Positions 1-48,762 of a DNA stretch of 64,000 bases are shown here, in pieces. Position numbers and translations under genes: made by a program. The DNA comes from a virus (lineage: Duplodnaviria > Caudoviricetes). Positions within the stretch are counted from its first letter, which is position 1; each line of letters starts with the position of its first letter. The notes under the pieces were generated by a model. It had not been told where the DNA came from. It saw only the letters and a program-made list of their open reading frames with translations, and did not search any database. Location: the IMG/VR virus record IMGVR_UViG_2974613666_000001, positions 81,401-145,400 of that record. One strand, 5' to 3'.

Positions 1-169
1 TTGATGTCTAGCGCTGTGATGTTTTGAAACTTTTGTATAATGTCCTCCTGTTGTTTTGTTGATTACGTGGTTTAAATTCATTAATTCATTTTATTACAGC
101 ACCGCTACTATAATATATTTTAAATTATGCGTGTAGGAAAGAAGCCCTAGTCTGAGAGCTTCCTTATGC

Positions 170-1210
170 CTAACCAGCAGCGCTCCCATAATAAGCACTG
201 TGCCAACCCTGCTTACGCCGACGCGCAACATACTCCTTCCATCTATCACTATGGTGGAACGATCGTTTGTGCTTGACTTTAGGTTTCACTTCCTCTTGCA
301 GTCTGTCAATCTCCAAATCAACACCTACACCATTGTCATACTCTGAACAAGTATTCAGCACAATCTGAAAAGCGTTAGCATTCCTAGCCATACATACATC
401 AGGGTGGACAGCCTGCGATAGCTTGCGTCTGCCAGATTTCCCAAACTTTTTGATAAATTTTAGGCAAACTAACCGCATTCTGTTTTCATCAACGCCATAA
501 CTGTGCAAATCTTTCTTGATACGGGTGATCGCCCTTCGGCATTTCTCATCATCACTCATCTGGTTGTCTACAATTGGGACTACTTTTAGCTGACATTCCG
601 ACTGTTGCAGTAGCTCAATTACAGTCTTAAGTGTGATCGCTCTTTCGACCAATGACTTTGATAGTGAAGTCAAACCCCAGGTAAGTTTGTGAACTTTATA
701 GTATTCACGCTCTAGTACCCCATTAATTACAGCACCTGATAAGCAGTTGCAGTCATACACCTGTCTCACACCGTCGTTTGTTTCGCGTAAATACTCACCT
801 ACTTTTTTCTTCAAAGAGTAGTCTGATAAACGTTTTAGTCCACAACCAACCATTGCATCTGATAAAAACTTCAAATCCTTGGTTACTGTTTCAGGTAATC
901 TGATTGATCGTAATTTCTCAATGCTAGTCAGGAGTTGGGAAGTAAATTTGATGTAATCTCCAATCTCGCCACTATTTAATCTAGCTGCTATTTTTTCAAC
1001 TGCTTGTTGAGGATAAAGTTGCAGAGCGATCGTCCTTAATAGCATTTGGGTTACAGCTTCCTTGGAGAATGTTGGCTGTCCTATTTTTTCACGGTATTGG
1101 CGGTAAATAACTTGCATTTGGTGGTCGCTGTAGTGTTTACCCCTAATTGCCCACAGTAAATGCTCGATCTCCTTGCGGCTGTAGTGGTCTTTTATTTGTA
1201 GTTGTTTCAC
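170..1210 (-). CDS. Hypothetical protein with C-terminal J-domain-like (HPD) motif
   Basis: 346 aa ORF; RRKLSQAVHPDVC...AFQIVLN resembles J-domain helix II-HPD-helix III; GTG start follows an AAGGTAAAACA RBS. Confidence 0.45.
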   Translation of the reverse strand: MKQLQIKDHYSRKEIEHLLWAIRGKHYSDHQMQVIYRQYREKIGQPTFSKEAVTQMLLRTIALQLYPQQAVEKIAARLNSGEIGDYIKFTSQLLTSIEKLRSIRLPETVTKDLKFLSDAMVGCGLKRLSDYSLKKKVGEYLRETNDGVRQVYDCNCLSGAVINGVLEREYYKVHKLTWGLTSLSKSLVERAITLKTVIELLQQSECQLKVVPIVDNQMSDDEKCRRAITRIKKDLHSYGVDENRMRLVCLKFIKKFGKSGRRKLSQAVHPDVCMARNANAFQIVLNTCSEYDNGVGVDLEIDRLQEEVKPKVKHKRSFHHSDRWKEYVARRRKQGWHSAYYGSAAG

Positions 1211-1250
1211 TTTGTTTTACCTTATAGCAGTAACGCTATTATATATGATA

Positions 1251-1278
1251 AACCACCAAGCTGTATCAGTTGGTGGTT
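1251..1278. terminator. Hairpin, probable terminator
   Basis: aaccacca...tggtggtt inverted repeat between co-directional minus-strand genes. Confidence 0.5.
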
Positions 1279-1287
1279 ATGTTTGGT

Positions 1288-1713
1288 TTAACGTGTTAGC
1301 ACTTCCAACTGTTCAGTGCTTATAGCCTCAGAAAATGCTTGAAACAGGGTTATCTCCGTTCCGAATTTAAACACCCTATAAGGATCACTAAGCACGGACT
1401 TATGCCATTCTTCTATGAAAGCCTTAACTTTTGGGTATCTCTTCCATAAGTAGTAAATACCTGTAGCTGTTGGGTTTGTGATAGCAGCTTCAGTTTTGAG
1501 CCTGTGAAGCTCAGAAAGTATATCTCTTTTCCAGCCATGATACACAGCCAGATCGTTGCCGTTTAGATATTCATCACCGTCTCTAACTGATATAAACCAG
1601 TAACGGTCTAGCCCGTTAGCAGCTAAACAACCCGTGAATCCCATCAAATCATCTGGATTATCCAGTAGCTCATCACAGCAAAGCAGTTCCCGCCCTCTCA
1701 CTCGGATTATCAT
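1288..1713 (-). CDS. Hypothetical phage protein
   Basis: 141 aa ORF with GGAG RBS, in a tight operon. Confidence 0.6.
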   Translation of the reverse strand: MIIRVRGRELLCCDELLDNPDDLMGFTGCLAANGLDRYWFISVRDGDEYLNGNDLAVYHGWKRDILSELHRLKTEAAITNPTATGIYYLWKRYPKVKAFIEEWHKSVLSDPYRVFKFGTEITLFQAFSEAISTEQLEVLTR

Positions 1714-1724
1714 TGCTTGTCTCC

Positions 1725-1985
1725 TTAAAAACTAAAACTATCTTGCGCTGATTCCCGGCCACTATTACTCGCACTTGCAGCTACCCAAGCTAGTAAATGT
1801 GGACATCCTAGCTCTATACATTCTTGAGCCAGTGCCACACCGAAAGTGAACTTATGATACGTGTGGCTCGTCCTATGTGGTGGGTTGTAGGGCTGGGAAC
1901 AATTCTTAATCAACTGCCTAGCCGCTTCAGGTAATTGTAGGAAGTCGTGGTCTGATGTGGTGTAAATTATTGTAGTTTCCATCAA
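1725..1985 (-). CDS. Hypothetical protein
   Basis: Start overlaps the upstream stop codon. Confidence 0.55.
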   Translation of the reverse strand: MMETTIIYTTSDHDFLQLPEAARQLIKNCSQPYNPPHRTSHTYHKFTFGVALAQECIELGCPHLLAWVAASASNSGRESAQDSFSF

Positions 1986-2170
1986 CTTATGTCTACCTCG
2001 TCTAAAATTGATACTACTCGCTCTAATATCTCGGTTGGAACCTTCTTAAAATTCCGTCGCTGCTCAACATACTCCATAATTGATCGCTGCAAGCCTATCC
2101 TGTAGGCTTTTTCTTTATCTGTGATGAAGTGGTTGGTTTCAATGAAACCTTTTAGCTGTAATGGATTCAT
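1982..2170 (-). CDS. Hypothetical protein
   Basis: ATGA-coupled to the upstream gene. Confidence 0.55.
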   Translation of the reverse strand: MNPLQLKGFIETNHFITDKEKAYRIGLQRSIMEYVEQRRNFKKVPTEILERVVSILDEVDIS

Positions 2171-2547
2171 ACTGTTACTTTACTCCGGATAGATTTGAAA
2201 CCTGCTTTAACTTTCTTGACTGATTTAACTGGTGCTGGTTGCGGATCTTCAGTAATAACTGCTTCCTGCGTGACTTCCTCAGAAACGATCACATCCGCTT
2301 GATTTTCTACTTGCAGTGCTGTTTCTACGACTGCTTCAGGTTCTACGCTTTCCCTCACTTGTTCAGTTGCTTCAGGTTTAGCAGTTGGTTTTATTTCACT
2401 CATAAAACCAATGTACTGCTGCTTTCCGTAAGTTGTCCAGGGTTTTGCTAGAGTGTGAATTGCTTGGAAAACTACGATTACAGCAACAATCAAAATGACT
2501 GCGGGCGCAATTGGGCTTTGTGTGTTGAAGTTGTTTGTGGTTGTCAT
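2167..2547 (-). CDS. Hypothetical membrane-anchored protein
   Basis: N-terminal hydrophobic helix, acidic linker, basic tail; AAGGTAAG RBS. Confidence 0.6.
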   Translation of the reverse strand: MTTTNNFNTQSPIAPAVILIVAVIVVFQAIHTLAKPWTTYGKQQYIGFMSEIKPTAKPEATEQVRESVEPEAVVETALQVENQADVIVSEEVTQEAVITEDPQPAPVKSVKKVKAGFKSIRSKVTV

Positions 2548-2615
2548 CAGTCTTACCTTTTGTTGTGGTTGGCTTATTTTGGTGGCTACCTGTTTTAGTT
2601 GAGGTAGCCTTGCGA

Positions 2616-3056
2616 TTAAAATTTGGTGAGGAGTTCTGCTATTAGTTCTTGGTCATTTGTGGGGTCAAGCCGGGTTACTTTCTCTAGTAACTCCTGATGA
2701 AGCTTTTTCAGCTTATGTGCTGCATCTCGTTTTATTGCATTATCCACTGCTTTTTCAACTTCTTCAGCCAGGAACAAAGATCGGTAAGATGCACCACCGA
2801 CAGCATCAGTAACTTTTTGGGTACTCGTACAGTCTCTAGAAGATGTAGAAAAGTTGATACCGTGGGAAGTCTTCACTATTCCCCTAGCATCTACCTTAAT
2901 TACTGACACTTCAATAAGCTCTTGGTGGAGTTGGTACACATCACCTATAAAAACTCTTGTACCTGGTTGTAGCTGCTTGCCCTCTTCTGAGGACATTGCA
3001 TAAAGTTTAGGGTGTGTTTTTGTTAATGCTTGGTTGATTTCTGCGATTGTCATCAT
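2616..3056 (-). CDS. Hypothetical phage protein
   Basis: 146 aa ORF with GAGG RBS, downstream of the conserved promoter box. Confidence 0.6.
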   Translation of the reverse strand: MMTIAEINQALTKTHPKLYAMSSEEGKQLQPGTRVFIGDVYQLHQELIEVSVIKVDARGIVKTSHGINFSTSSRDCTSTQKVTDAVGGASYRSLFLAEEVEKAVDNAIKRDAAHKLKKLHQELLEKVTRLDPTNDQELIAELLTKF

Positions 3057-3108
3057 GTTCCGCTACCTCGTTTACTTCCTCTATCTTGCCCTACTTCCTC
3101 AATTAAAT

Positions 3109-3138
3109 CAACCGTAATTATACTGAATTTAATTATAC
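3109..3138 (-). promoter_or_regulatory. Conserved upstream box (CAACCGTAATTATACTGAATT), copy 1 of 4
   Basis: Near-identical to 32227-32255, 33697-33726 and 36328-36357. Confidence 0.8.
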
Positions 3139-3174
3139 TTAAGACAGGAGTACACCTAAATCTGATATATTTGG

Positions 3175-3203
3175 TTGACAAGATAAGATAGTATAGCTAC
3201 TAT
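3175..3203 (+). promoter_or_regulatory. Sigma70-type promoter with overlapping palindromic operator
   Basis: TTGACA-17 bp-TACTAT; TAGTA-TAGC-TACTA at 3189-3202. Confidence 0.7.
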
Positions 3204-3272
3204 AACTATAAGCTGACGAACTGACAAGCTCGTAGGCTGAAATACTTGAAACAACTAACAAAGGTAAAACAA

Positions 3273-3914
3273 ATGTCGGATTTAGCAATTTTCAGCGAGA
3301 ATAATGATACGGAAAAGAAGCCTACTTCTAATGGAGCTACCACAGGCTCAATGACCAAGAAGGGTAAAGGTGGCGGGTTATCAAAACGGAATGCCAATAA
3401 AAACGCACTCGCCAACGCTGTACCCCCTGAAGCAATTCAAAACATTGAAATAATTAACAGGAAGTTCGGGGCTGAGTTTACCCCGGCATTACTTGCTAAA
3501 CTAACTGAGGTAGCAGATAGCTGGGAAGCTAACTACACTCAGGAAAGAATGCTAGAGGAAGCATTAGTAATCGCTGCTGATAAGAGATCGCGTGATGCGG
3601 CTGTAGAGGGTCGTCAACGGGCGCAACTGCAAATCAAAAGACGCGAGTTACTAGCGCTCAAATCAGAAGCCGAAGAATGGATGGAAAATACCTTTGATAC
3701 TTTCATCTCGAAACAGTTGGGCGCTGGTTTACCTGTAGCTTACGTTCAGCAACTTGCAACTTCGCAAGCAGCTAATTTCCACGTTGACTTGAACGACTTT
3801 AAACTGAAGGAAGATGGTAGCTGGGGAGAGTTCGCACCTGTGTTTATTCACGAGGATGAGATTGAACTTACTACGCAACGCCTGATTGAAATGGGCGTTG
3901 AGGTAGAGAACTAA
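3273..3914 (+). CDS. Hypothetical coiled-coil protein
   Basis: ORF 3246..3914; start moved to ATG 3273, which follows an AGGTAAAACA RBS. Confidence 0.65.
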   Translation: MSDLAIFSENNDTEKKPTSNGATTGSMTKKGKGGGLSKRNANKNALANAVPPEAIQNIEIINRKFGAEFTPALLAKLTEVADSWEANYTQERMLEEALVIAADKRSRDAAVEGRQRAQLQIKRRELLALKSEAEEWMENTFDTFISKQLGAGLPVAYVQQLATSQAANFHVDLNDFKLKEDGSWGEFAPVFIHEDEIELTTQRLIEMGVEVEN

Positions 3915-4052
3915 TGTACTACCTCATAAGAGCGATAGCGTGTCTCATTATCGTGGTTGCTATGTGTCAGCTTTTTACCAGCAAAGATAGATTAGCCGCT
4001 TATGCTGGGCTTGCAATTCTTTTCTCAATACGATTGCTACTAATCTAAAACA

Positions 4053-4277
4053 ATGGAAACCACAGCACGACAAAACAACAACAGATCACTAACACTAGCA
4101 GGTGTAAATAAGCTTTTCTCCTGCTTAGAACCCGCACCAGTAGTGAAACAAGACCCGAAGCTAGGTTACTACAGTGTAGCCTACAGAGGTGAGATATTGA
4201 TGGATAAAACCCTGACAAATGTCAGCCAGGAGTTGTTAAAGCTGGTCGCAAACCAAAGAACTGAGGTGACTGAATAA
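4053..4277 (+). CDS. Hypothetical protein
   Basis: 74 aa ORF, coupled to the next gene. Confidence 0.5.
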   Translation: METTARQNNNRSLTLAGVNKLFSCLEPAPVVKQDPKLGYYSVAYRGEILMDKTLTNVSQELLKLVANQRTEVTE

Positions 4278-4624
4278 TGAAGAAAAGAAGTGGGGGATCT
4301 TTTGAACTTCCCCCACAATCTGAAACCAACCAACGAGAACTACAGTTAACCGACTGCGAGATCGAAGCTTTACGTTCTGAAAGAGAGAAAAGCTATCTAT
4401 ACAGGATGGCACTGATAGACAACGCACTAGATTTACTTCCATTACTGCTTTTAGCAAAGGACAAGAAAATGATTGATTTCATCAACTCTGCTTTAGAGGG
4501 TGCTTTAGGCTCTGGTTCAGCACTATTTCTTGGTGCAGCCGCATTGGGAATTACAGTGAATGCCCCAGTTATTTTGTCCGCTTTATTTGGTGGCGCTTTG
4601 ATCAACTATGCTGTGAGGGAATAG
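4277..4624 (+). CDS. Small membrane protein; hydrophobic Gly/Ala-rich C-terminal half, possibly two fused genes
   Basis: Internal AAGGAC...ATG (MIDFINSAL) near 4469; Gly-rich TM segments. Confidence 0.5.
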   Translation: MKKRSGGSFELPPQSETNQRELQLTDCEIEALRSEREKSYLYRMALIDNALDLLPLLLLAKDKKMIDFINSALEGALGSGSALFLGAAALGITVNAPVILSALFGGALINYAVRE

Positions 4625-4626
4625 TT

Positions 4627-4813
4627 ATGGAACCTGGTTATTGTTGATTACTACCATCACGATCAGTATTTAGTAATTGAGAAAATCGACAATGGTTACT
4701 ATTTCACAATTGAAGGTAGTAGATGTAAGGAACCCTTCAAATCAGCATCAGAAGCTGAGATAGCAGCACAAATGACAATTGAGCATGATTTAGAAAATGA
4801 GGACATTGAGTAA
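4627..4813 (+). pseudogene. Frameshifted small acidic protein
   Basis: RBS and ATG at 4627 stop after 6 codons; the +1 frame continues as LVIVDYYHHDQY...EDIE*. Confidence 0.4.
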
Positions 4814-4982
4814 TGCTACAACTATACCGAGTAATTTACACACCACACAACACTGACACAAGGATAAAGGTAACTAAGCCTATGACCTTACAAAAAGCAA
4901 TCAATACTGCATCAGAGCTAACAAAAGAAAACACTACTGACAACTTATGCTATTCACTTGAATTAGTAATGGAGAATGCTGA

Positions 4983-5438
4983 ATGCTAACCTTACCAGCA
5001 GGTTCTGTAGAACGGAAACCACAAGGTAAACTTAAACCTAAAGTATTCTGGTTAGGTTCTGCAATGGTAGCAAGTCTGTTACTTTACAGTAAAACTACAC
5101 AGCAGCCTAAATTAGTGCAACTCGAAACCAGTAACCAACCAGCACAATACACAGCAGTAGTAGATCGCTTGGCTGATAATTACCTAGTAGTGGCTCAACA
5201 GTTAACAAGTACACCAGGAAACAACTGCTACAAGCGATCACTCAATGACTGCCTAACTTTGATGAAGCCTGAAGAGGTGCGATCGTTTGAGTCTTTACCA
5301 CCACAGCAAGCCATCAACTCTGAGTTAAAGTTTCTAGTTTTTCAAGTGAGGGTAGAAGCTTTGGAACTGGCAAAAGAACGTGTAAGCAGTAGTAGCAGAA
5401 AACTGAGATTAGTTCAGGAGAAGAGCCATGCCGGGTAA
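4983..5438 (+). CDS. Membrane-anchored hypothetical protein
   Basis: N-terminal TM helix (VFWLGSAMVASLLLY); GGAG RBS. Confidence 0.6.
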   Translation: MLTLPAGSVERKPQGKLKPKVFWLGSAMVASLLLYSKTTQQPKLVQLETSNQPAQYTAVVDRLADNYLVVAQQLTSTPGNNCYKRSLNDCLTLMKPEEVRSFESLPPQQAINSELKFLVFQVRVEALELAKERVSSSSRKLRLVQEKSHAG

Positions 5439-6069
5439 ATTGAATTTAAGCTTGAATGCACCAGCTACTTACACAGCATTAGGACAGTGGACTGGTGTTT
5501 CTCAAGCAACAGTAAACGCAGCTTTAAACGGTGATCAAGGTGCAGCAGCCCAAATATTAGATTTTTCTGAGCAAGCTAAGGCTAGAGCGTCTAATGCAGA
5601 AACTATACTTAATGCGGCTACTGAGGGTGTGGAGGCTCTAGGTGAAGTGATAGCCTTAGAGGCACAATTCTTAGGTACTGCTTCTCAGACTTTTACTACA
5701 GCAGCGAAGGCTGTGAACTCTACTTTCCAAAAAGATAAAAAGTTTCAGCACTCACTAATTGAAGGGCAAGTGCAACATAGGTTAGCCGTTGATGAGGAGA
5801 ACGTCAGACATAAACGAGCATTGAACTTGTTACCTATGGAATCTAAAACACGAGAAACCATTGCTGGGATAAACTACGAAACCAAGCGTTACCAGTTAAA
5901 TCAGCAGGTAAACGAAGCTAGAGAAAACCGCAAAGAAGCCTTAAATCAACTATCTACACGTCAAAAACAACTGCAAAGTCTACAGCGTGTCGGTGGCGGT
6001 GGCAAGGGCTTAGGTAGTCCTATCGCCAACGGTGTTAAAGGCTTTTTCAATTTCCTGTTTGGTCATTAA
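5428..6069 (+). CDS. Helical/coiled-coil protein with amphipathic C-terminus
   Basis: Ala/Gln-rich helices; ends GGGGKGLGSPIANGVKGFFNFLFGH; AGGAG RBS. Confidence 0.65.
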   Translation: MPGKLNLSLNAPATYTALGQWTGVSQATVNAALNGDQGAAAQILDFSEQAKARASNAETILNAATEGVEALGEVIALEAQFLGTASQTFTTAAKAVNSTFQKDKKFQHSLIEGQVQHRLAVDEENVRHKRALNLLPMESKTRETIAGINYETKRYQLNQQVNEARENRKEALNQLSTRQKQLQSLQRVGGGGKGLGSPIANGVKGFFNFLFGH

Positions 6070-6087
6070 ATTTAAGGAGGATTGCAA

Positions 6088-6267
6088 TGTTCGATGATTT
6101 TCTATCTAGCGCACTGATCACAGGTTCTGCTGTAGGTATATTAAGTTTCACCTCTTACATAGTAGCTGGCGTGATCGTCTCTGTGGGTAGTGGGTTAATT
6201 GTTCCTGCTGGTTTATTAGCTGGAATTGTGTTTGCTGTTGGCGGTTTAGTTAGAGGTAGGGTGTAAT
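6088..6267 (+). CDS. 59-aa Gly-rich two-TM membrane peptide, absent from the ORF track
   Basis: AAGGAGG RBS; MFDDFLSSALITGSAVGILSFTSYIVAGVIVSVGSGLIVPAGLLAGIVFAVGGLVRGRV*. Confidence 0.65.
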
Positions 6268-6464
6268 GCAAACCACAAAGTTACTCTTAACTAAATACGA
6301 ATTACAAGAGGCTAGAGATTAAATGCAAAGACTGCTTACCGTGGCAGGATCTGATAACTGATGAGGATGTCGATGCTTTAACTGATAAGCAGGTTGAGGA
6401 CGGCATTGCTATGAACTACGACGGCGGTTTAAGTGGGTTCAAAATGGCTTGTGTAGGTAATTAA
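6267..6464 (+). pseudogene. Disrupted small acidic phage protein
   Basis: MQTTK...EARD* then continues in another frame as CKDCLPWQDL...YDGGLSGFK...*. Confidence 0.5.
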
Positions 6465-6465
6465 A

Positions 6466-6738
6466 ATGTGTTTAACAGATATCTCAATCGGTCAAAGTTG
6501 CGTAGTCAGATATGGAAACAGTCACTGCATCCCCACAAATGTAAGCAAGGTTAGCAAACTAGATGGTACTTTCCAGGTACATTCCCATCCCAACTTTCCA
6601 GGACTGGAGAAAGAAAAATTTACCCTCAAACTCGTGACTGCGGTATCTGATCCAAGTAAAAAGCAGAGACATTACAATCACGTCGGCGGATCAAAAGTAA
6701 TAGATGTTAATTGCTGGGTCGAGTTCATAGTTTACTAA
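6466..6738 (+). CDS. Hypothetical protein
   Basis: 90 aa ORF followed by a hairpin at 6762-6790. Confidence 0.55.
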   Translation: MCLTDISIGQSCVVRYGNSHCIPTNVSKVSKLDGTFQVHSHPNFPGLEKEKFTLKLVTAVSDPSKKQRHYNHVGGSKVIDVNCWVEFIVY

Positions 6739-6795
6739 TTTTGCCAATATGTACAGTATGGAACACCTTAGTTATTTCTAGGGTGTTTTTCGCTC

Positions 6796-6824
6796 TTGAT
6801 ATAAGATAGCAGCAGTGCTATATT
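6796..6824 (+). promoter_or_regulatory. Promoter with operator palindrome
   Basis: TTGATA-17 bp-TATATT with extended TG; TAGCA-GCAG-TGCTA at 6807-6820. Confidence 0.7.
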
Positions 6825-6853
6825 ATTGAAATAACTTAAACAAGTGGAACAGC

Positions 6854-7168
6854 ATGAAACGACGATCGCTCACACAAACACTCAACTACTATGGACAATC
6901 ATGCTTATTGATGTGTGGGGCTGAGGCAATGTGCCAGGATCTACCCCGTCAGCTAGGGATTGATATGTTCATGCTTTTAAGCGAAATCAACCCTGATAAT
7001 TCAACAGCCGAGGATTTTACTTTGCTTTTACTGAGACTAATGAAGGCTTATCCCAACGTAACTCAGACACAACTACTAGACTTACACGCTGAGATAGTCA
7101 AGATTATTGGCGACTATGGTGATCGCATTTTGCAAGAAATAGCAGGAGGTCAACGAGATGTTAGCTAG
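6854..7168 (+). CDS. Hypothetical protein
   Basis: 104 aa ORF directly after the promoter. Confidence 0.6.
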   Translation: MKRRSLTQTLNYYGQSCLLMCGAEAMCQDLPRQLGIDMFMLLSEINPDNSTAEDFTLLLLRLMKAYPNVTQTQLLDLHAEIVKIIGDYGDRILQEIAGGQRDVS

Positions 7169-7700
7169 AAATAATGGCTATTATCAGCAGGAGCAGCAAG
7201 AACCAGACTACTTATATGAGCAGTATGACTCACAGCAAGTGCAGCGACGTATTGAGGATAGTGATGCGTGGGTTGATACTGGTATTGGTGTCGGACAAGG
7301 GGTGGTATTAGCAGGTATTCAGATGGTAACAGTCGAAACCTTGTATATGTTTGGTGCTGTGGGATTTTTCCCGATGGTAGTTGCAGCAATACCTGTAACC
7401 CTAGCCTTTGGCACTGTGCTGAACACCATCACCATAGATAACGGTTTCTCAGTAAGTGATTTGGGTAAATTTGGTGGAGGTTTGTCGAGGTGTGCTTTGC
7501 TGTCGCTGAGTTCTTGGAAACTTTACAGTGATAACAAGAGATCACACGAGATAGCCAAAGAAGGTATCTCCACTATTCAGTACCAACTGGATAAATATGA
7601 AGGTAGGCAGCAGCCGGCTAACTATGATAATTTGGGGTTGATTGCGATCGTCCTTGGGCTGTTTCTTGTGGGAGTGGTTATGGGTGGTAGAAGGAAATGA
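7158..7700 (+). CDS. Polytopic membrane protein
   Basis: 3-4 hydrophobic segments; AGGAGG RBS. Confidence 0.7.
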   Translation: MLARNNGYYQQEQQEPDYLYEQYDSQQVQRRIEDSDAWVDTGIGVGQGVVLAGIQMVTVETLYMFGAVGFFPMVVAAIPVTLAFGTVLNTITIDNGFSVSDLGKFGGGLSRCALLSLSSWKLYSDNKRSHEIAKEGISTIQYQLDKYEGRQQPANYDNLGLIAIVLGLFLVGVVMGGRRK

Positions 7701-7731
7701 GTTATTGAGTTAAAAAATATAGGTGCAAAAT

Positions 7732-7763
7732 AAAACCCCTAACTATTACAGCTAGGGGTTTTT
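7732..7763 (+). terminator. Intrinsic terminator
   Basis: aaaacccct...aggggttttt. Confidence 0.65.
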
Positions 7764-7931
7764 GGTTATCTAATAAACAATTGTCTCTACTGCCACTAAA
7801 ACCCCGACATTAAGAATGTTATGGGATACGAGAAAGTTAAAACTCTGTTCACGGAGAACAACGGTACTAGATGCCATTCCTTAGTGGAAGATGCCTTTTC
7901 AAGAGCAGTATTGCAAAGATTAGGCTAAGTA

Positions 7932-8216
7932 ATGACCAGACCTAAAATACATTATATAGGCGATCCATGCTGTAACAGTAAAGGACGATCACCTTTATTA
8001 GCAGACAGTATTTATGATGTGACCTGCCAAGGATGTATTGCTGCTTTTCACGGTAAAAAATTGGGTGGTCGTCCTCCTAAGAATGAAACCAAAGGTGTGA
8101 CTGTAGCTGTGAATTTATCACCCAAGGCTTACGACAAACTACAAAGTATTCCAAGCGGTGATCGTTCTGGTTGGGTGAGTGAGTTGATTGAGAAAAGTAA
8201 TGAAAAGGTAAGATAA
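7932..8216 (+). CDS. Putative ribbon-helix-helix DNA-binding protein with Cys-rich N-terminus
   Basis: GGRPPK...VTVAVNLSPKAYDKL...RSGWVSELIE pattern; CC and CxxC residues. Confidence 0.55.
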   Translation: MTRPKIHYIGDPCCNSKGRSPLLADSIYDVTCQGCIAAFHGKKLGGRPPKNETKGVTVAVNLSPKAYDKLQSIPSGDRSGWVSELIEKSNEKVR

Positions 8217-8324
8217 TGCTACTGAAAATCACGATACCAAGTAATGAAAATAGTATAAGCCAGGAAATTGTGGCAGAAATTGCAACTTACTCTAAAACTG
8301 GACTCCATAAACAATCTTGGTATC

Positions 8325-8672
8325 TCAAAGAACCTTATGGGTTGTATCATTCACTACTGCTAGCTGCTGTTCCAGTAACTTATTATTGTTTTCTGCTAAC
8401 TTCCTAATTACTTGCTTTTGACCCAGTAACTTAGTGTATTCATATTGTCTTTTGGATGATTCCCTACTCCTCACCTTTGCTTCTTTTATGGTTTCGTTAG
8501 GCATATTTGCGCCTGGGGTTAAATAAACTTCGCTAAAGACTTTCTCAGGTTGATCAGGATAATACTTGTTAAACCTTCTGTAAAAAGCCGCTCTAGAAAT
8601 GCCTAGATGCTCAATCCATCGTGATTTGGTCAGTGTTAAACCATTGTAGGTTAAGAATACTTTTTTTGGCAT
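8325..8672 (-). CDS. Small DNA-binding protein, resembling the HTH of HNH homing endonucleases
   Basis: LTYNGLTLTKSRWIEHLGISRAAFYRR; likely start MPKKVF at 8672. Confidence 0.5.
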   Translation of the reverse strand: MPKKVFLTYNGLTLTKSRWIEHLGISRAAFYRRFNKYYPDQPEKVFSEVYLTPGANMPNETIKEAKVRSRESSKRQYEYTKLLGQKQVIRKLAENNNKLLEQQLAVVNDTTHKVL

Positions 8673-8676
8673 ATTG

Positions 8677-9027
8677 CTAAATCTCGATAACCCAGTAATC
8701 AGATAATTCAGCTTTAACTCTGTTGGCAACATTAAGCCAGTTAACAGATTTCCAAGCTGATTCACACGCTATAGATATCAAAGTATGCGGCAACCAATCA
8801 ACGTTGTCTGCGCCGCAAACAGAATCAACCATTTTATCTCTATTACTAAAGTCAAAGTGAGGGTAGTTATCTTGCGAACTTTTCTTACACTTTTCAGGTG
8901 TTATAGCATCTACATTTCCCTTATAGTCATAGAAAACACCTTCAACTAGATCACCAAATATTTCCTCTTCAAAAGCTGTTAACTCATTACTGCTCATCTG
9001 TCTTACTTCCTTATAGTTCACAAACAT
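8677..9027 (-). CDS. Hypothetical protein, paralog of 9062..9352
   Basis: Shares AFE.E...DL and W...NW motifs with its neighbour. Confidence 0.55.
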   Translation of the reverse strand: MFVNYKEVRQMSSNELTAFEEEIFGDLVEGVFYDYKGNVDAITPEKCKKSSQDNYPHFDFSNRDKMVDSVCGADNVDWLPHTLISIACESAWKSVNWLNVANRVKAELSDYWVIEI

Positions 9028-9061
9028 CTTACTGATTTAACCCCGTAGCACCTATTACGAT

Positions 9062-9352
9062 TTATTCAGGGTCATCAACTTCACCAGACCTGTACCTTAT
9101 AAATTCCGCAATAATAGCTTCCCAGTTTGCTTGTCGCCAGAGTACACCCATAGCGGCTAATGCTAAAGGGCTACAAGCCCTATAGTGCGGATCCCGTTCT
9201 GGTTTTCCTTCTAAGTAATCTACAGTTTTAGCAATCTGACTATTGCTGCTACCTAGTATTGCTTTACAGTTATCTGCTGTTAGAGGCAGATCATTGGGAA
9301 TATAAGCCTCAAATAAATCCTGTAGTAATTCCTTTTCAAATGCGTTCATCAC
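9062..9352 (-). CDS. Hypothetical protein, paralog of 8677..9027
   Basis: GAGGTAAA RBS; shared motifs. Confidence 0.6.
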   Translation of the reverse strand: MMNAFEKELLQDLFEAYIPNDLPLTADNCKAILGSSNSQIAKTVDYLEGKPERDPHYRACSPLALAAMGVLWRQANWEAIIAEFIRYRSGEVDDPE

Positions 9353-9371
9353 TTTACCTCTGCGTTACTAC

Positions 9372-9400
9372 TTGTTTTATCATAGCACCCCTACTATAAT
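9372..9400 (+). promoter_or_regulatory. Promoter with operator palindrome
   Basis: TTGTTT-17 bp-TATAAT; TAGCA-CCCC-TACTA at 9383-9396. Confidence 0.7.
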
Positions 9401-9434
9401 ATATTGCATAAAGGTAAAACAAAAGGTAAAACAG

Positions 9435-11573
9435 ATGTCACGCTTAGATTTAGATAAGTACAGCTACACCACGCCGAAAATAGCCATGCTCTCGTGGTCA
9501 CTACTAGCAGCAGCACTCGGAAGCGCGATCGCTTCTCACTACGGTAGTTACCCACATTCCTTAGATATGTGTTTCTATCCGGTAGCCGCACAGAAAAGAG
9601 ATGCAAAAATAGAGCAATTAAGGATAGACAACTTAATTACAGAAATTTCAGACAAATCACCACAGCCGTCGCTAGGTACAAAACACTGTAATCCCGGACG
9701 TGGTGATATCGGGACTATACCAGCGTCTTATATAAAGAAAGCCCACAATGGTAGCTTGAATGATCGTGCATCAGAACTAGCGCCAATTACTCAAGGTTTA
9801 CGGGGTGGTTGGTTAAAACAGGTTTCAGAAGTGCCAGCCGAAAACCCATTTAAAATTCCTTTTGGTGCTGGTGCTATCGTTCTTGGTACAGGTGCGATAT
9901 TTGCACTTAAGAAACAGCAGGATCAAGCTGGACAATTACGCCCGATGTACAGGGCTACTCAAAGGGGTGCAAGTCTACAGGCAGGTTATGCTTTAGCTCT
10001 GCATGAAGGAGATTTAAAGTTGTCGGCTGAGTTGATGCTTAATAAACTGCGTGGTTTACGTGAGAGTGATGCTCGTATTATGTTCGCTCGGTCTGTAACT
10101 GATGAACAAGCCCACTTCATGCTGCAAGCTATGGACGAGGACGATTATCACTCGTTCGGTTACTTATTAGATAACGGGGCTAGTTTTAATAAGTTTCTAG
10201 CTCCTGCAACTACCCAAGAAGTTCAACTAGAAGCACAACCGGATTTTGTAGCCGAGCCTGTAGCTAACCAACCACCAGACGGTGAACCTGTCGATAAAGT
10301 AGAGTACACAAAAACTGCTGATATGCCAAGGGCTGATAAATATGAACCTTATCGCCAAATAGGTTTACAGATCCTCCAGCAAGCAGGTACACCCGGAAAA
10401 TGTAAGGCTATTGTTGCACCATCGCGTACAGGAAAAACCACAGTTCTTTACTTCATGCTTGAGGAATCCTACAGAGTTCTAGGTGACAACCTAACTTGTT
10501 ATGTGTGGCAAGGAAAGGGCATTGAGCCTATACACCCAAACATCCCACGTAAAAATCATAGTGGGTTCACACTCAAGGAGTTTAACCTTGATGCACTTGA
10601 TGCTGTCTGGGAGGAATACGAGTTACGTCAAGAATTACTAGAACAAGGACATCGTAACTTTGCTCCTACATTACTAATCATTACGGACTGGCAATCAATC
10701 AAGGATCAAATCTCCAGCTTCTCACCAAAAGAATTTAAGGAGATTCAGGCGAAACTGATGACCTTAATCAATAATGGTGCAGCTTTGGGTACAACAATTT
10801 GGTTAGATAGTCAGTCCCCTTCAATTGATGAGTGGGGTTTAGGGTCAAGCTCAATTCGTGACAACTTCGATATCTTTGCCATTGCCAGGATAGGTAAAGA
10901 TAAAAGCGGAGTACCAATGGGTGACACTAAATGTATTACCAAAATGGTAAACAATCCTTATTTAGTACCTGGTGAAAAAGATAGGGTACGATCGCTTGAG
11001 CAGTTCGGTGTACTGGTTGATGGTATGGAATCGGGACAAATCAAAACCTCTGTTATTCTCTCTACTGCTGGTATCGTGCGGTTGGGGATTACACCTGAGT
11101 TTGAGCGTAAGGTTTTACAGTTTCAAACTAAGCAGCCCGCAAGCGACTCCCAACCCACAGACACACCAAAAGAGGTAGAACGTAAGCCTAAAGAGCCTTT
11201 AGAGTTTCCGAAACCTAACCCTAGTCCAGAACCACTACCCAAACCAGAAGATAAGGTGAGGTCTTTATTAGCTGAGGGGAAAAATTACCGTCAGATTTGC
11301 GAAATTCTAGGAGGTAAACACCCTATAAAGCACACAGCAGCAATACTAGGTTCTATGTGTCGTATCGATAAAATTGATATTTTATCAGTTAATGCCAAGA
11401 GTCTGCTAGATGTTCTACGTGGTGAAGGCTGGATAGAAATTGACAGCAGTAGATTTACAGAGCTAGTGTCCCCTCTGGGGTTTAGTGGTTATGATCTAGC
11501 CACTTACTTAGAGGAATTGGAACTGCTTACTTTTACTCAGGTTAAGGACGGTTGTGTAAGAGCCTTGTATTAA
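9435..11573 (+). CDS. Membrane-anchored P-loop ATPase, FtsK/HerA/TraB-like
   Basis: Two N-terminal TM segments, Walker A APSRTGKT, Walker B-like LLIITD, IWLDSQS motif, Pro-rich linker and small C-terminal domain; start after AGGTAAAACAG. Confidence 0.6.
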   Translation: MSRLDLDKYSYTTPKIAMLSWSLLAAALGSAIASHYGSYPHSLDMCFYPVAAQKRDAKIEQLRIDNLITEISDKSPQPSLGTKHCNPGRGDIGTIPASYIKKAHNGSLNDRASELAPITQGLRGGWLKQVSEVPAENPFKIPFGAGAIVLGTGAIFALKKQQDQAGQLRPMYRATQRGASLQAGYALALHEGDLKLSAELMLNKLRGLRESDARIMFARSVTDEQAHFMLQAMDEDDYHSFGYLLDNGASFNKFLAPATTQEVQLEAQPDFVAEPVANQPPDGEPVDKVEYTKTADMPRADKYEPYRQIGLQILQQAGTPGKCKAIVAPSRTGKTTVLYFMLEESYRVLGDNLTCYVWQGKGIEPIHPNIPRKNHSGFTLKEFNLDALDAVWEEYELRQELLEQGHRNFAPTLLIITDWQSIKDQISSFSPKEFKEIQAKLMTLINNGAALGTTIWLDSQSPSIDEWGLGSSSIRDNFDIFAIARIGKDKSGVPMGDTKCITKMVNNPYLVPGEKDRVRSLEQFGVLVDGMESGQIKTSVILSTAGIVRLGITPEFERKVLQFQTKQPASDSQPTDTPKEVERKPKEPLEFPKPNPSPEPLPKPEDKVRSLLAEGKNYRQICEILGGKHPIKHTAAILGSMCRIDKIDILSVNAKSLLDVLRGEGWIEIDSSRFTELVSPLGFSGYDLATYLEELELLTFTQVKDGCVRALY

Positions 11574-11590
11574 TCCGACGATTGGGTATA

Positions 11591-11632
11591 AAAACAAACC
11601 TCCTTAGACCCGTATCTAAGGAGGTTTGTTTT
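11591..11632. terminator. Bidirectional terminator
   Basis: aaaacaaacctccttaga...tctaaggaggtttgtttt between convergent genes. Confidence 0.8.
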
Positions 11633-11649
11633 GCACTAATAAAGTATAA

Positions 11650-17342: not shown

Positions 17343-17361
17343 TGTTTTATTCTCGTGTAAT

Positions 17362-37258: not shown

Positions 37259-37373
37259 CTTTAATATATTCTAGCGCTGTTACTATAATATATGATATAT
37301 TTAACCTGTTGTCAAAATATATCACCCAATTATTGAAACAGGTGGTATATTAACTAAAGTATTCAACAAAACT

Positions 37374-40089: not shown

Positions 40090-40984
40090 TTAGATTTTCA
40101 GAATCACATTTATCTCTCCACAGTCACACTCCACCTTTTCCACAAGATCCTGAAACAGCACGTACATTTCATCAACCGTCGCGCACTGCCAAAATTCCGG
40201 CTTAGAACCGTATTCAAGCAATTTCTCGTAAATACCTTCAGAACCTGCTGATTCTTTTTTTAAAGCGTTCAGCAGGTTATTTAATTTTGTCTGTTTTATT
40301 TGAATTATTTCGTTTAGATCATTATCGCCTAAACCTACCAATTTGCTTATTTGTTGCCTTAATTCCTTTATTTCAGCAGTTTCTTCTACTGTTCTGTCTA
40401 TTTGGATCGATCCAAGATCCGCTATTGTCTCAGCCGTTACATAAAACTTACTCAAACTTACCTATTTAGACTTTTCTATAATAGATAACTTGTACTAGAT
40501 GGGTAAAGCAAGCCACGTGAGCTTTCTCATTTAATCGTCTGAATTTGTGACCCTGGGAGGAGTTGAATTTGTTTTTATCCCTTACGGCTGCTGACATTGC
40601 TGCCAGTATTCGCATTTTAAACAAATCATCAGGTGTGGTTAGGTCTGTAGATCCTCCATCAAGGAACATTACGGTTACATTATGTTTCTGGAGTTCAAGG
40701 CTAGCTTGCTCCCATTGCAATGTGCTTCTGGTAAATCTGTCGAAACACGGGATAATTAGTTTTTTAATGGCTCCAGATTTGATTAGATCGAGAACCTTGT
40801 TATACCCCTTACGCTTATCGCTCGCTCCGCTTTCTATGTCCCAAAATATTTGATTATCATTAAGTCCCCAGCTTTTAAGTTGAGCTATATAGCGTTCAAG
40901 TCCATGACCTTCCTCAAACTGTTTTTGAGTAGAAACCCGACAATACCCCACGCAGTCACTATAATCTTTTAATCCAGTAACCAT
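40090..40984 (-). pseudogene. XisF-like large serine recombinase with central domains deleted
   Basis: 40466..40984 is the catalytic domain (GYCRVST, ESG, DRFTRS); 40090..40455 is the coiled-coil and C-terminal tail; recombinase and Zn-ribbon domains are absent. Confidence 0.7.
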
Positions 40985-41139
40985 AGATAACGCAGCCTGA
41001 TTAGTTTATTTTTGCCCATAGTATTATACATAACTGTATACAAACTGATAGACAAAAATTAAATAGAGTGCTTATATAGGTTTAAAGGCGTTGTCTCATG
41101 AATCCCGCGTTAAAAGTAGAATATAAAGAGGTAAAATAG

Positions 41140-42057
41140 ATGATTCAGCAAACAGCTAAACCAACAAGTTTAGCCATTGAGGCACTAAAAAAGATGCTGT
41201 CTAAAGATAAGGAGACTCCTTTCAGTAATGCTCTGTGGGATATAATACACGATCCTCAGATCCCTAATGAACAGCCACAGGAGAGTGAGATATCAGCAAG
41301 GGAATACAGAGAAGCTAAATATATTTGGGATTTGGTGCGCGATCCAAGCGTGACAGAGTTGGATCAGTTTACCGCTCTAACCCTTGAAAAATATGAGAGA
41401 GCTAATTCTATTTGGGAGAGGAATAAAGGACAGTCTCGTAAAAATCGCAAACCTAGGATAAGGTTATCTCTTGACGACTTTCAAGCCATGCTGATCAATT
41501 TATACGGCTTTGAAATTATTAATCGTAGTGCCACTCACAGGTTGATACATACTGCCAATGTTAGCGGTATCGCTAAATCAGCTAAAAGTATTAATAGAGA
41601 AGGTTTAGCTGTTCTATCTAATTTTGCTAATAGAGAAAATTACCCTGATGCCGAGTTTCCGCCAGAGGATTACCCTACTAGCTTTGATGTTCTTTTAGCA
41701 ATTGGTGAACAGACCATCCAAGATGTCTATGGTGAAGGTAATAATGAGGAAGAGGATGATAGCTATAATAATATTGCTGATGTCCGTTCCAATCTTCTAC
41801 TAGGTCACGATGGTGAGCTAACTGAAGACAGACCTAACAACCTAAGAACTTTAATCCACCACTTTCTAGCTAAAAACGGTGATAGGGATTTACATCTAGA
41901 TGGTCAATTAGCGATCACTCTTATAGACCTATTGTTTAAAACCAATCCCAAGGTTGATTTAACAGCTTTGTTAAAAATTCAAGCAATGCTTGGTATCCCT
42001 GCCGAGGCTTTCTTAGAAATGCTTCGCAGGGATATGGAGGATATGCAGCAGGGCTGA
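41140..42057 (+). CDS. Hypothetical protein, candidate regulator
   Basis: 305 aa, divergent from the recombinase; GAGGTAAAA RBS. Confidence 0.55.
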   Translation: MIQQTAKPTSLAIEALKKMLSKDKETPFSNALWDIIHDPQIPNEQPQESEISAREYREAKYIWDLVRDPSVTELDQFTALTLEKYERANSIWERNKGQSRKNRKPRIRLSLDDFQAMLINLYGFEIINRSATHRLIHTANVSGIAKSAKSINREGLAVLSNFANRENYPDAEFPPEDYPTSFDVLLAIGEQTIQDVYGEGNNEEEDDSYNNIADVRSNLLLGHDGELTEDRPNNLRTLIHHFLAKNGDRDLHLDGQLAITLIDLLFKTNPKVDLTALLKIQAMLGIPAEAFLEMLRRDMEDMQQG

Positions 42058-42481
42058 CTATTTCCTCACCCAAGGGTGGTCAAGTTCCTTAATAGCCTCA
42101 GCTAAGGTTGTTAGTGTTTTCTCCTCCAACATTGATGATTTATCTGAGGTATTTTGTGTATATGATTTTTGCTTTATGGTCTTTGTAGTCATTTTCTTAC
42201 TGGATTTATATTTGATAGCCCATAGACATTACTCTATGGTTTGGGAATGAATCGAGATATATCACATAAGTTCTTAACACAAATTAGCATATTTATAAGC
42301 TTAGGTGTGAGGTGTATCACCCCTTTTTGCCTTTGTGATTCTAGTCACAAGTATTAGAGCTTATAATCACTGCTAAATTGCTGTAAGCCTAATTTTTTCG
42401 TTACTGTATCAAGTCGTTAGCTGCTATATGTGAGGTCACTAAAAATTACTTCTCTTATCTTGTAAATTAAATATACCACTA

Positions 42482-46579: not shown

Positions 46580-46612
46580 GTAACAATCTCCAATTACTAG
46601 AGGATTATAATC

Positions 46613-47308
46613 ATGACAGTAGAAAGAATCAGTCAGAAACGCGCATTTGGTCACGGTGACTCAGGTAAATCCAACTTACTCAATAACGAGCGCATTTACA
46701 AGGATGACGACGCTTGTAAAATCAATAGTGCTATAGAACATCTGAATAATCATATTCGCCTATTTTACAGCCGCTACAGTGTGAAATGTGTAGAGTTAAA
46801 TGCTGTATTAAGTTGGCTCAAAGATAATATCTATCAAATAGGGGGTTTTGCCTTCTATAAGGGCAATACACATGAGAACCAATCACTTCCTGTTACGGTT
46901 TTGGAGTATTTAGAGCGCGCAACTGAGAAGTTTCACGAAGATCCCCAGATTGGTATAGCGTCTGATTTTGTTGGACATACTTTAGAGAAATATATTTTAC
47001 TCGATACCATAAGAGTAGCCATCCGTGACTTAGAAATTACATGGGTAAGCTGGAAAGGTCACAGAATGGTTAATGAATATATCATTGACGAGGTGTTGGT
47101 AGAAGACCCAGTTAAAGCTCAACAAATAGCGATCGCTCGTCGCAACTATTCCCAATACTTGAATCGTCTTAGTTTATTTCTCTGGTTAGCTACCCGTCAG
47201 GAGTGCTACTTGTGCGGTGATTATGCTACTCAGGAATATTGGGATCGTGAGAGTAACGGCGAGAGTAAACCCCACGCTGCTTTGAATACTTTTATGGCTG
47301 CTGAGTAA
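46613..47308 (+). CDS. PduO-type ATP:cob(I)alamin adenosyltransferase-like protein
   Basis: GDSGKSNL...RIYKDD, IEHLN, R...R..E, YLNRLS.FLW.A.R. Confidence 0.7.
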   Translation: MTVERISQKRAFGHGDSGKSNLLNNERIYKDDDACKINSAIEHLNNHIRLFYSRYSVKCVELNAVLSWLKDNIYQIGGFAFYKGNTHENQSLPVTVLEYLERATEKFHEDPQIGIASDFVGHTLEKYILLDTIRVAIRDLEITWVSWKGHRMVNEYIIDEVLVEDPVKAQQIAIARRNYSQYLNRLSLFLWLATRQECYLCGDYATQEYWDRESNGESKPHAALNTFMAAE

Positions 47309-47328
47309 GTAGTAATTACATCCAATTA

Positions 47329-47360
47329 AAAACCACCTGATTTGATCAAATCAGGTGGTT
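47329..47360. terminator. Bidirectional terminator
   Basis: aaccacctgatttgatcaaatcaggtggtt perfect palindrome between convergent genes. Confidence 0.7.
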
Positions 47361-47386
47361 CATTTGTTTTATACCTTATCTACACT

Positions 47387-48346
47387 TTAAGCAGTAACTC
47401 TAATTAAACCAGACTTATCTACCCACCAGCCTGGGACTTGGTAATCAATTGGTGCGCCTGGTTTATAGGTATTCTTAATTTTAGTGGGCGCTGACTTCCC
47501 TGCTGATATTTCTGGATGTAGTTTTCTAAATAGCTTGTCTGTCTCACAGAAAGTATTTTGAATATCCGCCACATTCAGAGGAATATTTAAACCATCTGCT
47601 TTAGCATAAGGATATTCCGACAAGTTAACCCATTCTAAAGCTGTTTTCGGTGCATATTCAGCATAGTCGAAGCTTACTTTACCCCCTGCGCGATGTATTA
47701 GCCCTAGCTTGAATGCTCCACGAACAGCACCAACACCTAAAGCATATAAGGGTTGAGTATCTTTAAAGCTTTCATGCCACAGCAGATCAAACACTACCTG
47801 ACTGGCTAGAAAATCCCCAATTCCCTGTATTTTGGTTAGCTGCTCAAATAGCTGTGATCCTGACCTAATATTGAGTAGTTCACCATCTATATCAAGATTT
47901 AGAGATTTAGTTAAAGCTACAGTTCTTTCAGCTATAGCCTTGGCTTTTGGCTCTCCTGGATTACCCGGAGGAACCATGTAGGCTGTAGTGTATAGCTTAC
48001 CTTCACCGGAATATTCACTAATCAACTGTGTAAATTGCTCAGGATTGAAAGTCTTTGTTTCAGGAAAATAATCTCTACTTTTAAGATATTCCCAGAAATG
48101 TATTGTTTTAAAGTGGTCAAATATAAACACTCTAAACAGTAGTTCTTCAGGTAATTGAGATCCTTTGTACATCACCTCTTTAAGCTGATACTGTGATGTA
48201 CGATCATAAATTCTCTGAATATTCGTGTATTTTGCAGTTCCTAGTTTTGGCTCTCTGTATAGAGTATCGCTCAATTTCTTGAGGAAAGCTGATTGCCGTA
48301 AACTCACAAAGTCTGTGTAATCCTTTGTTAATTCTGTTTTAGTCAT
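47387..48346 (-). CDS. 5-hmdU DNA kinase-like protein (aGPT-Pplase1 family, HhH fold)
   Basis: KYTNIQR.YDRTSQY, LFRVFIF..F, LYTTAY, IQGIGDFLA.Q...DL, G.GA.RG, DIQNTFCETDK. Confidence 0.75.
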   Translation of the reverse strand: MTKTELTKDYTDFVSLRQSAFLKKLSDTLYREPKLGTAKYTNIQRIYDRTSQYQLKEVMYKGSQLPEELLFRVFIFDHFKTIHFWEYLKSRDYFPETKTFNPEQFTQLISEYSGEGKLYTTAYMVPPGNPGEPKAKAIAERTVALTKSLNLDIDGELLNIRSGSQLFEQLTKIQGIGDFLASQVVFDLLWHESFKDTQPLYALGVGAVRGAFKLGLIHRAGGKVSFDYAEYAPKTALEWVNLSEYPYAKADGLNIPLNVADIQNTFCETDKLFRKLHPEISAGKSAPTKIKNTYKPGAPIDYQVPGWWVDKSGLIRVTA

Positions 48347-48762
48347 ATCCCTAATTTTAATGAGATTAAGAAACCTCTAGATACTCTAATCTGGAGATTG
48401 CCGTTTCTTATTCACTTGCTACCTACCCGATGCCCTACCTTTGCTTTTATCGTCATCCTCTTCATCGTCGCCAATATTGTTCACAAAGTCTAAACTTAGC
48501 ATATACCTAACCTCATCAAAAATATCAATCTTGCAGAAACGAAACAAGTAAAAGCTACTAGACACAGCAGAATCAGCATTAAATCTCTAATGCTACCTAT
48601 GTTATTGGTTTGTTGCATAATCTTGTCTACCTTGTTTCATCTATATTACTTTTACTGATGTGAAATGTCAAATATTTTAGTAATACTGCTATAGCAGTGT
48701 GCATAACTGCATGGTTATATATCTATCAAATAATGTATGATGAAAAAGGTATACATTATTTT

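Follow-up and report, generated by a model that had tools for sequence, protein, structure and literature searches.

A repeated promoter palindrome in a lytic Nodularia siphophage, probably the operator set of one phage-encoded regulator

The DNA considered here is the last 64 kb (positions 81401-145400) of IMG/VR record IMGVR_UViG_2974613666_000001, a single 145.4-kb contig; the whole of this 64,000-nucleotide stretch is called the window. A short palindrome, TAGYR-N4-YRCTA, recurs in it between genes, and its copies probably form a set of operators through which one symmetric regulator encoded by the phage would act on the promoters of the replication, nucleotide and recombination core. By its sequence, the contig comes from a lytic Nodularia siphophage of the genus Ravarandavirus, with an identity of 97.7% to Nodularia phage vB_NspS-kac65v162 across 87% of the first 25 kb. 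The latter, a Baltic Sea siphophage, is the sister phage in the comparisons below. An initial annotation of the window had likened the element to the phage-plasmid P1, a reading that gives way to the lytic one; there is no sign of a plasmid lifestyle. To our knowledge, nothing is known of gene timing in the large siphophages that infect filamentous, bloom-forming cyanobacteria.

Location of the palindrome in the phage genome

The sites in the window and the genes beside them are as follows; positions are those of the window unless the genome is named.

97-110: variant site CAGCACCGCTACTA, with a perfect TATAAT as its right flank (matrix score 30.5, rank 7 in the genome), between a hairpin after gene 170-1210 (minus strand) and the next leftward gene
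1225-1238: site TAGCAGTAACGCTA, 14 nt upstream of the start of gene 170-1210 (minus strand), with a 9-bp hairpin (1249-1276) on its other side
3189-3202: site TAGTATAGCTACTA, in the divergent region between 2616-3056 (minus strand) and 3246-3914 (plus strand)
6807-6820: site TAGCAGCAGTGCTA, upstream of 6854-7168 and 7158-7700 and possibly of 7932-8216 (all plus strand)
9383-9396: site TAGCACCCCTACTA, in the divergent region between 9062-9352 (minus strand) and the large ATPase gene (frame 9372-11573)
13092-13105: weak variant TAGCGGTAGTGTTA, a 13th site, at the promoter of 11650-13056 (minus strand); matrix score 11.9
13671-13684: site TAGCATTGTTGCTA, in a 60-bp gap from a terminator to the Holliday-junction resolvase gene 13103-13633 (minus strand)
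15029-15042: site TAGTAGCTCTGCTA, the most symmetric, with 14 of 14 flank matches, upstream of 13754-14974 (minus strand)
21072-21085: site TAGCGCTTATGCTA, in the divergent region between the helicase gene 19578-21020 (minus strand) and the 940-aa gene (plus strand)
37272-37285: site TAGCGCTGTTACTA, in the divergent region between the cytosine methyltransferase gene 36422-37258 (minus strand) and the dUTPase gene 37374-37838 (plus strand) with ThyX
48678-48691: site TAGTAATACTGCTA, in the divergent region between 48419-48565 and the 5-hydroxymethyldeoxyuridine (5-hmdU) DNA kinase gene 47387-48346 (both minus strand) and 48697-49371 (plus strand) with the tape measure gene

The pattern has 10 exact matches in the window, starting at 1225, 3189, 6807, 9383, 13671, 15029, 21072, 37272, 41562 and 48678. 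The expected number is 1.47 (standard deviation 1.2), and 0 of 100 shuffles reached 10. Nine of the ten sites first listed by the annotation are exact matches, and the tenth, at 97-110, is a variant with one mismatch. The annotation also held that its copies are all intergenic, and a comparison of coding with non-coding DNA agrees: over the whole 145-kb genome, 10 of the 11 exact matches are non-coding, in a genome of which 12% is non-coding (binomial P 7e-9). This non-coding share, like the junction types given below, rests on rough gene calls. The match at 41562-41575 is inside the open reading frame (ORF) 41140-42057 and has 5 of 14 flank matches and a matrix score of 8; it is put down to chance and left outside the system.

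A position matrix run over the whole genome sets 12 strong sites apart from the noise, all of them intergenic and 10 of them in the window. Beyond the window, an exact site at genome position 52205 occupies the divergent region between the PolA gene and a GNAT-PadR operon; this copy (genome 52205-52218) and the one at window 13671-13684 are the same 14-mer, TAGCATTGTTGCTA, in different flanks. The strong matrix sites also include a doubtful variant at genome 48024, which is not taken as a secure member; it sits between an RHH_1 gene and a tnpB gene, in a longer AT-rich inverted repeat. The structural left arm (genome 1-48 kb) is free of sites by the same scan. As for the junctions, 6 sites are in divergent regions and 6 between co-directional genes, with none in about 25 convergent junctions.

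The genes linked to sites in the window are a conserved 346-aa gene with small genes, the large ATPase gene, the neighbourhood of an SF2 helicase with a 406-aa gene and the Holliday-junction resolvase, an SF1-type helicase with the 940-aa gene, the cytosine methyltransferase and dUTPase-ThyX genes, and the 5-hmdU DNA kinase gene opposite a 224-aa gene followed by the tape measure gene. Outside the window they are the genes for PolA, GNAT, a PadR-like protein and the clamp loader. The modules that the annotation had placed under the motif (ATPase/membrane, recombination/helicase, methyltransferase/dut and units near the tape measure gene) do bear sites. The resolvase matches phrog_1770 (E 6e-25); in the GenBank record of the sister phage, it is called hypothetical.

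Symmetry, spacing and promoter overlap

The 14-mer is the core of a longer palindrome of 26-28 bp, TATAWTA-TAGCA-N4-TGCTA-TAWTATA, because the flanks match TATAWTA on both sides. On average, 11 of the 14 flank positions agree, compared to 5.1 of 14 at random intergenic positions, and the flanks lay outside the search pattern. The spacing is fixed as well. When inverted TAGYR/YRCTA pairs were counted for spacers of 0-20 bp, N4 alone was enriched, with 11 matches compared to 0-5 elsewhere; 9 of the N4 pairs are intergenic, and any other spacer has at most 3. Everted and direct arrangements of the half-sites gave flat counts.

The two arms vary independently. There are 41 positions at which one arm deviates alone and 2 at which both have changed and remain complementary. 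Since the arms deviate singly and without compensatory changes, the pattern is the one expected of two half-sites read by a protein and not of a hairpin or cruciform. Several copies also fold poorly as RNA, with a 3-bp core bordered by A-C or C-A mismatches and energies of -0.9 to -4.8 kcal/mol. This bears on the idea that the palindrome acts as a nucleic-acid structure, whether as a 5' or intercistronic RNA hairpin for stability or processing, as a terminator working in both directions or as a cruciform in the DNA on which the phage resolvase would act. Some copies do fold, with stems of about 10-12 pairs (about -10 kcal/mol for the plus strand at 15029), the start codons 5-14 nt from three sites make it probable that some copies are transcribed, and the gene for a Holliday-junction resolvase is beside site 13671. 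Even so, the excess of single-arm changes, the poor folding of several copies, the lack of sites in convergent junctions and the AT-rich stems with no T run leave a structural role highly improbable.

The palindrome overlaps promoters. The annotation had counted at least five copies over sigma70-type promoters, and the scans bear this out: promoter-like matches scoring 10 out of 12 overlap the sites at 3189, 6807, 15029, 21072 and 37272, and in window 1-20000 each of the three top sigma70-like matches falls across a site. The promoters and one terminator are listed here.

3175-3203, plus strand: TTGACA-17-TACTAT, overlapping site 3189; among the three best in 1-20000
3227-3199, minus strand: TTGTCA-17-TATAGT, overlapping site 3189
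6796-6824, plus strand: TTGATA-17-TATATT with a TG, overlapping site 6807; among the three best in 1-20000
13117-13088, minus strand: TTGATC-18-TAAAAT, at the weak site 13092
13704-13726, minus strand: intrinsic terminator with a 10-bp stem and a T run, ending the unit upstream of site 13671
15056-15028, minus strand: TTGACA-17-TACTAT, overlapping site 15029; among the three best in 1-20000
At site 21072, minus strand: TTGACT-18-TATGAT, from a targeted promoter scan
At site 37272, plus strand: TTAATA-17-TATAAT, from the targeted promoter scan
At the genome 52205 site, plus strand: TTGACA-17-TAGCAT, from the targeted scan, covered by the palindrome

The -10 box implied by these promoters is at palindrome positions 1-6, 10-15 or 13-18, or at their mirror images, and it always faces a gene. 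Because this register varies, the palindrome is an independent element over the core promoter rather than a fixed component of what the polymerase recognises. The phage genome yielded no sigma factor, so the host RNA polymerase probably transcribes the units that bear sites; in a search of the genome for a T7-type RNA polymerase, the control itself matched nowhere. At 13671, a transcription unit must start at the site because there are only 60 bp, filled by the site, from the strong terminator to the resolvase gene.

One could also consider the palindrome as a promoter cassette and nothing else, that is, as two extended -10 promoters back to back (TGnTATAAT on each strand) that serve the host RNA polymerase with no dedicated regulator. 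The half-site with its flank reads TGCTATAWT, which fits an extended -10: a T occupies position 10 in 85% of half-sites and a G position 11 in 70%, ahead of a hexamer similar to TATAAT. Hexamers on the side without a gene, though, are as good as those facing one. In addition, 6 sites are in divergent junctions, and several lack a -35 box, as extended -10 promoters may. The annotation had named two things that would speak against an operator, and they came out differently: the motif is not as frequent in coding DNA, while each half does resemble an extended -10 (TGCTATAAT type). What makes the cassette on its own rather unlikely is the geometry. Polymerase recognition does not fix divergent -10 boxes 10 bp apart, yet this spacing alone is enriched, and the spacers and outer flanks differ among copies, which means that the geometry is no relic of recent duplication. 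Further, a second promoter at the 6 co-directional sites would yield antisense RNA only, the key G of the TG motif is an A in 30% of half-sites, and the good -35 boxes imply a -10 in three registers.

Occurrence in the host, the sister phage and relatives

The palindrome is a feature of the phage. The annotation had suggested looking for it in the host chromosome, and ATAGYR-N4-YRCTAT is found 6 times in the phage (145 kb) compared to 0 in the control, and 10 times compared to 9 in the control in the 5.7 Mb of Nodularia sp. UHCC 0506, a single Nodularia genome and not that of the isolation host. The ten strict-core matches in this genome all lack the flanks, and most are in long open frames.

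These counts make a host regulon unlikely on sequence grounds. A host transcription factor such as LexA, TrcR or another Nodularia regulator could in principle bind the sites and link phage expression to host stress. One form of the half-site, TAGTA, is close to the Anabaena LexA box. The TrcR box, TGTAGTAT, is similar to the half-site too, and it overlaps -10 boxes in Anabaena (PMC10272220). The known host boxes are not enriched in the phage, however. The 14-bp Anabaena-type LexA box RGTACNNNDGTWCB occurs 3 times in the phage against 2.0 expected, with one copy intergenic, TAGTA-N6-TNCTA has 0 matches, the TrcR 8-mer occurs 4 times against 7.8 expected with 0 intergenic, and NtcA boxes are not enriched either. 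The spacing is 2 bp off that of the LexA box, as the annotation had noted, and the orientation of the half-sites is unlike that in the TrcR operator. Together with the unenriched motif in the Nodularia genome, this leaves binding by LexA or any other host factor very improbable.

In the sister phage, 13 strong intergenic sites are kept. The changes within sites include C/T and A/G swaps at degenerate positions, and at 21072 the flanks have changed symmetrically. The sister copy of 37272 is degraded to ...TAATA, and the sister has an extra copy before its RNA ligase operon. At 9383, the homology between the two phages breaks at the centre of the palindrome. To the left of this site (window 8347-9391 compared to about 86.7-88.06 kb of MK605244), the two carry unrelated modules, on the minus strand here and on the plus strand there. 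This is 1 of 34 block ends, with about 0.06 expected by chance, and 1 of 17 indel blocks against the sister ends at a site. The break suggests that modules may have been exchanged by recombination at shared operators.

Other relatives are few. A tblastn search against isolated phages returned kac65v162 alone as a close relative, and searches of viral contigs and genome contigs with the helicase, PolA, the PadR homologue P0006 and a PadR alignment found none. In the Pseudanabaena phage PA-SR01, which has ThyX in common, no site scores above 9.4. An IMG/VR scan with TAGCANNNNTGCTATAWTAT gave at least 116 contigs with a single match each; none of those listed has multiple strong sites, and the matches are taken as chance. 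The sole distant relative recovered, through a metagenome scan, is one phage on two overlapping contigs (contig JACCEC011849428, L267) that is syntenic at about 50% protein identity.

Interpretation and candidate readers

The dispersed, promoter-overlapping, symmetric and phage-specific motif fits one regulator, as the annotation had proposed; the repressive action it assumed is read from position only. In the mechanism favored here, the operator would cover the -10 box, the spacer and the region of the start in at least 12 sigma70-type promoters (genome 52-130 kb), and a dimer or a ribbon-helix-helix (RHH) tetramer encoded by the phage would read its two half-sites. Since this regulator would sit on the core promoter, it would most likely repress all units together, serving the early/middle module either as a shut-off in time or as a control of dosage. 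The motif would then define a regulon of about a dozen units, including the polymerase, clamp loader, helicases, resolvase, methylase, dUTPase/ThyX and the kinase of thymidine hypermodification.

Several observations weigh against this picture or against the reader proposed for it below. The start codons at sites 1225, 37272 and 48678 are so near (5-14 nt) that transcription from some promoters has to pass through the palindrome, which is then near +1. The polymerase alone could explain part of the conservation, as the half-site with its flank looks like an extended -10. Divergence from the sister phage is 2.5-5% in the sites, not below the 2.9% of other intergenic DNA, in a small sample of about 160 bp. 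In 19 kb of the 42-kb contig JACCEC011849428, both this palindrome and any other repeated palindrome are absent; a PadR-like homologue is still encoded there, with 52% identity and a different recognition helix. Also, the phage has at least 10 other small DNA-binding candidates, the phage PadR clade lacks the tyrosine that cellular Pex proteins carry in the presumed recognition helix, and the sites do not fit the known PadR operator, the distance from G to C being 9 bp here and 11 bp in Bacillus subtilis.

The PadR/Pex-like protein (genome 52593-52928), a homologue of kac65v162 gp071, is, from its sequence and the place of its gene, the best single candidate for the reader. It scores 30.1 bits to Pfam PadR (cut-off 27), and its nearest solved structures are those of Pex (E 6e-11). 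Its gene comes second in an operon whose start is 27 nt downstream of the genome 52205 site, and it is the sole DNA-binding gene in an operon starting directly at a secure site. Because the operon begins so close to the site, autoregulation is suggested, and as the reader, the protein would repress itself. Both B. subtilis PadR, which acts at padC, and the cyanobacterial clock repressor Pex are winged-helix dimers on a palindrome in or near a promoter. The PadR operator is an 18-bp palindrome with 6-bp repeats, CATGTA-N6-TACATG, of the pattern CNTGNA-N6-TNCANG (PMC5728393), and this 6-6-6 site is 2 bp wider between the key G and C than the phage site. The mismatch in geometry makes a canonical PadR site less credible and is still compatible with a divergent PadR reader. 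The recognition-helix residues of the phage clade differ as well, and we infer that the missing tyrosine belongs to the pair of DNA-binding tyrosines that PMC5728393 names. A literature search for the operator sequence of Pex did not find one.

The other candidates belong to different families. Those with real family matches (the PadR/Pex-like, TrcR-like, RHH_1 and several HTH_3 proteins) are all encoded outside the window. Besides an RHH_1 protein (genome 47872-48039) and five or six HTH_3 proteins, there is a 58-aa RHH-like protein (genome 49521-49697; strand Q-x-N-x-R by eye; phrog "transcriptional repressor" at E 0.007). Two candidates are in the window.

7932-8216, plus strand: P0001 (94 aa), with an N-terminal Cys motif and a C-terminal stretch that is RHH-like by eye; no Pfam family; phrog_29712, of unknown function
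11650-13056, minus strand: P0004 (468 aa), with a Phage_CI_repr match at E 0.07 and Atlas feature matches of 0.83-0.86 to HTH_3 clusters, a lead only

The annotation had put forward four proteins. Those at 7932 and 63005 are RHH-like by eye and have no family match. The one at 11650, P0004, shows the faint helix-turn-helix hints listed above and nothing beyond, and the weak site 13092 is at its promoter. ORF 41140 is rejected as it has no homologue in the sister phage, which retains the whole site set and keeps all the other candidates. If the reader is encoded by the phage, a rough estimate would make the PadR-like protein the leading candidate, though a doubtful one; the RHH-type proteins taken together would come somewhat lower, P0004 or an HTH_3 protein would be a little less likely again, and an unrecognised protein would be quite improbable.

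A homologue of the Anabaena repressor TrcR, which acts in translation stress in cyanobacteria, should also be mentioned. The paper on TrcR notes homologues in Nodularia phages (PMC10272220), and 111 cyanobacterial TrcR genes were recovered through the conserved operator. The phage homologue (genome 78491-78919, minus strand) is about 2.5 kb before the window and has about 36% identity (E 1e-13); a homologue search with it returned the protein itself alone. The beta-strand with which it would face DNA reads AIYIAL, where the host protein has VTSIRL, and the polar residues of the latter are absent. In Anabaena, the TrcR operator, ATACTACA-CT-TGTATTAC (PMC10272220), has boxes that contain TAGTA/TACTA and overlap -10 elements, as here, but they are everted relative to the phage palindrome. 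Because the strand is non-polar and the host operator is arranged differently, the homologue would be a weak candidate for the reader. It is speculation that it might instead poison host TrcR through mixed dimers and not through DNA binding of its own.

Three other systems invite comparison. Arc and Mnt in the immI region of Salmonella phage P22 have a short symmetric operator with TAG...CTA half-sites over back-to-back promoters, much like the one here, and the Arc operator is TAGA-N5-TCTA. They are small tetrameric RHH repressors, and the Nodularia phage encodes several RHH-type proteins. In P22, however, there are one or two operators at a single locus compared to at least 12 copies over 80 kb, the spacing here is one bp longer, and an RHH protein is linked to the sites in P22 only. 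In phage P1, copies of the C1 operator are scattered over a large genome and place separate units under one phage repressor. These operators are asymmetric 17-mers read by a monomer, and they maintain plasmid-prophage lysogeny, whereas the Nodularia phage is lytic. Lastly, promoter/stem-loop (PeSL) cassettes were reportedly described in T4-like phages by Arbiol et al. in 2010. In these, too, a repeated palindrome is tied to host-type promoters and punctuates gene modules, and the one junction between the two Nodularia phages that falls exactly at a palindrome adds to the likeness. The two differ in sequence, lineage and geometry: the PeSL palindrome lies upstream, and the one here overlaps the -10.

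A literature search found no description of this operator set. The principle of dispersed operators under one phage repressor is in the textbooks, and the instance is new for this virus group. A more far-reaching version has a divergent PadR/Pex-family protein as the master timing switch, repressing itself and at least 12 promoters, with operators that double as pairs of extended -10 elements and as joints for module exchange; as a whole, it is an unlikely one. With the motif and the short list of candidate proteins, the early/middle switch of the Nodularia phages from the Baltic Sea becomes open to direct tests.

Some further observations concern these genes and their surroundings. The kinase gene at 47387-48346 (minus strand) carries the 5-hmdU DNA kinase helical domain PF18723 (E 3.6e-61), and genes for dUTPase, ThyX and dTMP kinase are near it. 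The phage probably hypermodifies its thymidines, and a modified T could affect any protein that reads a T-rich operator. At genome 47872-49697, the RHH_1 gene is divergent from tnpB (48037-49320), with the 58-aa RHH-like ORF downstream. In window 24505-25921, a weak RHH match (25853-25921) is beside a tnpB (24505-25689), and the sister has a weak-RHH copy at 114582-114785, again beside a tnpB. Window 40436-42364, a block that ORF 41140-42057 is part of, is not matched in the sister; the corresponding stretch there (about 114.1-116.0 kb) holds a serine recombinase fragment and a tnpB. At genome 71472-73228 (minus strand), two HTH_3 (XRE-type) genes of 83 aa (38 bits) and 507 aa are adjacent at a divergent junction that is free of the palindrome; this pair may be a separate regulatory module.

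In JACCEC011849428, a 13-mer common to two junctions is no more frequent than chance. This relative also has two copies (10552-10837 and 11402-11573) of a stretch of about 100-120 nt in which TTGACA-N17-TATATT is followed by ACATGAGAGGCAAACAA, and repeated small RNA genes may have their promoter and first nucleotides there.

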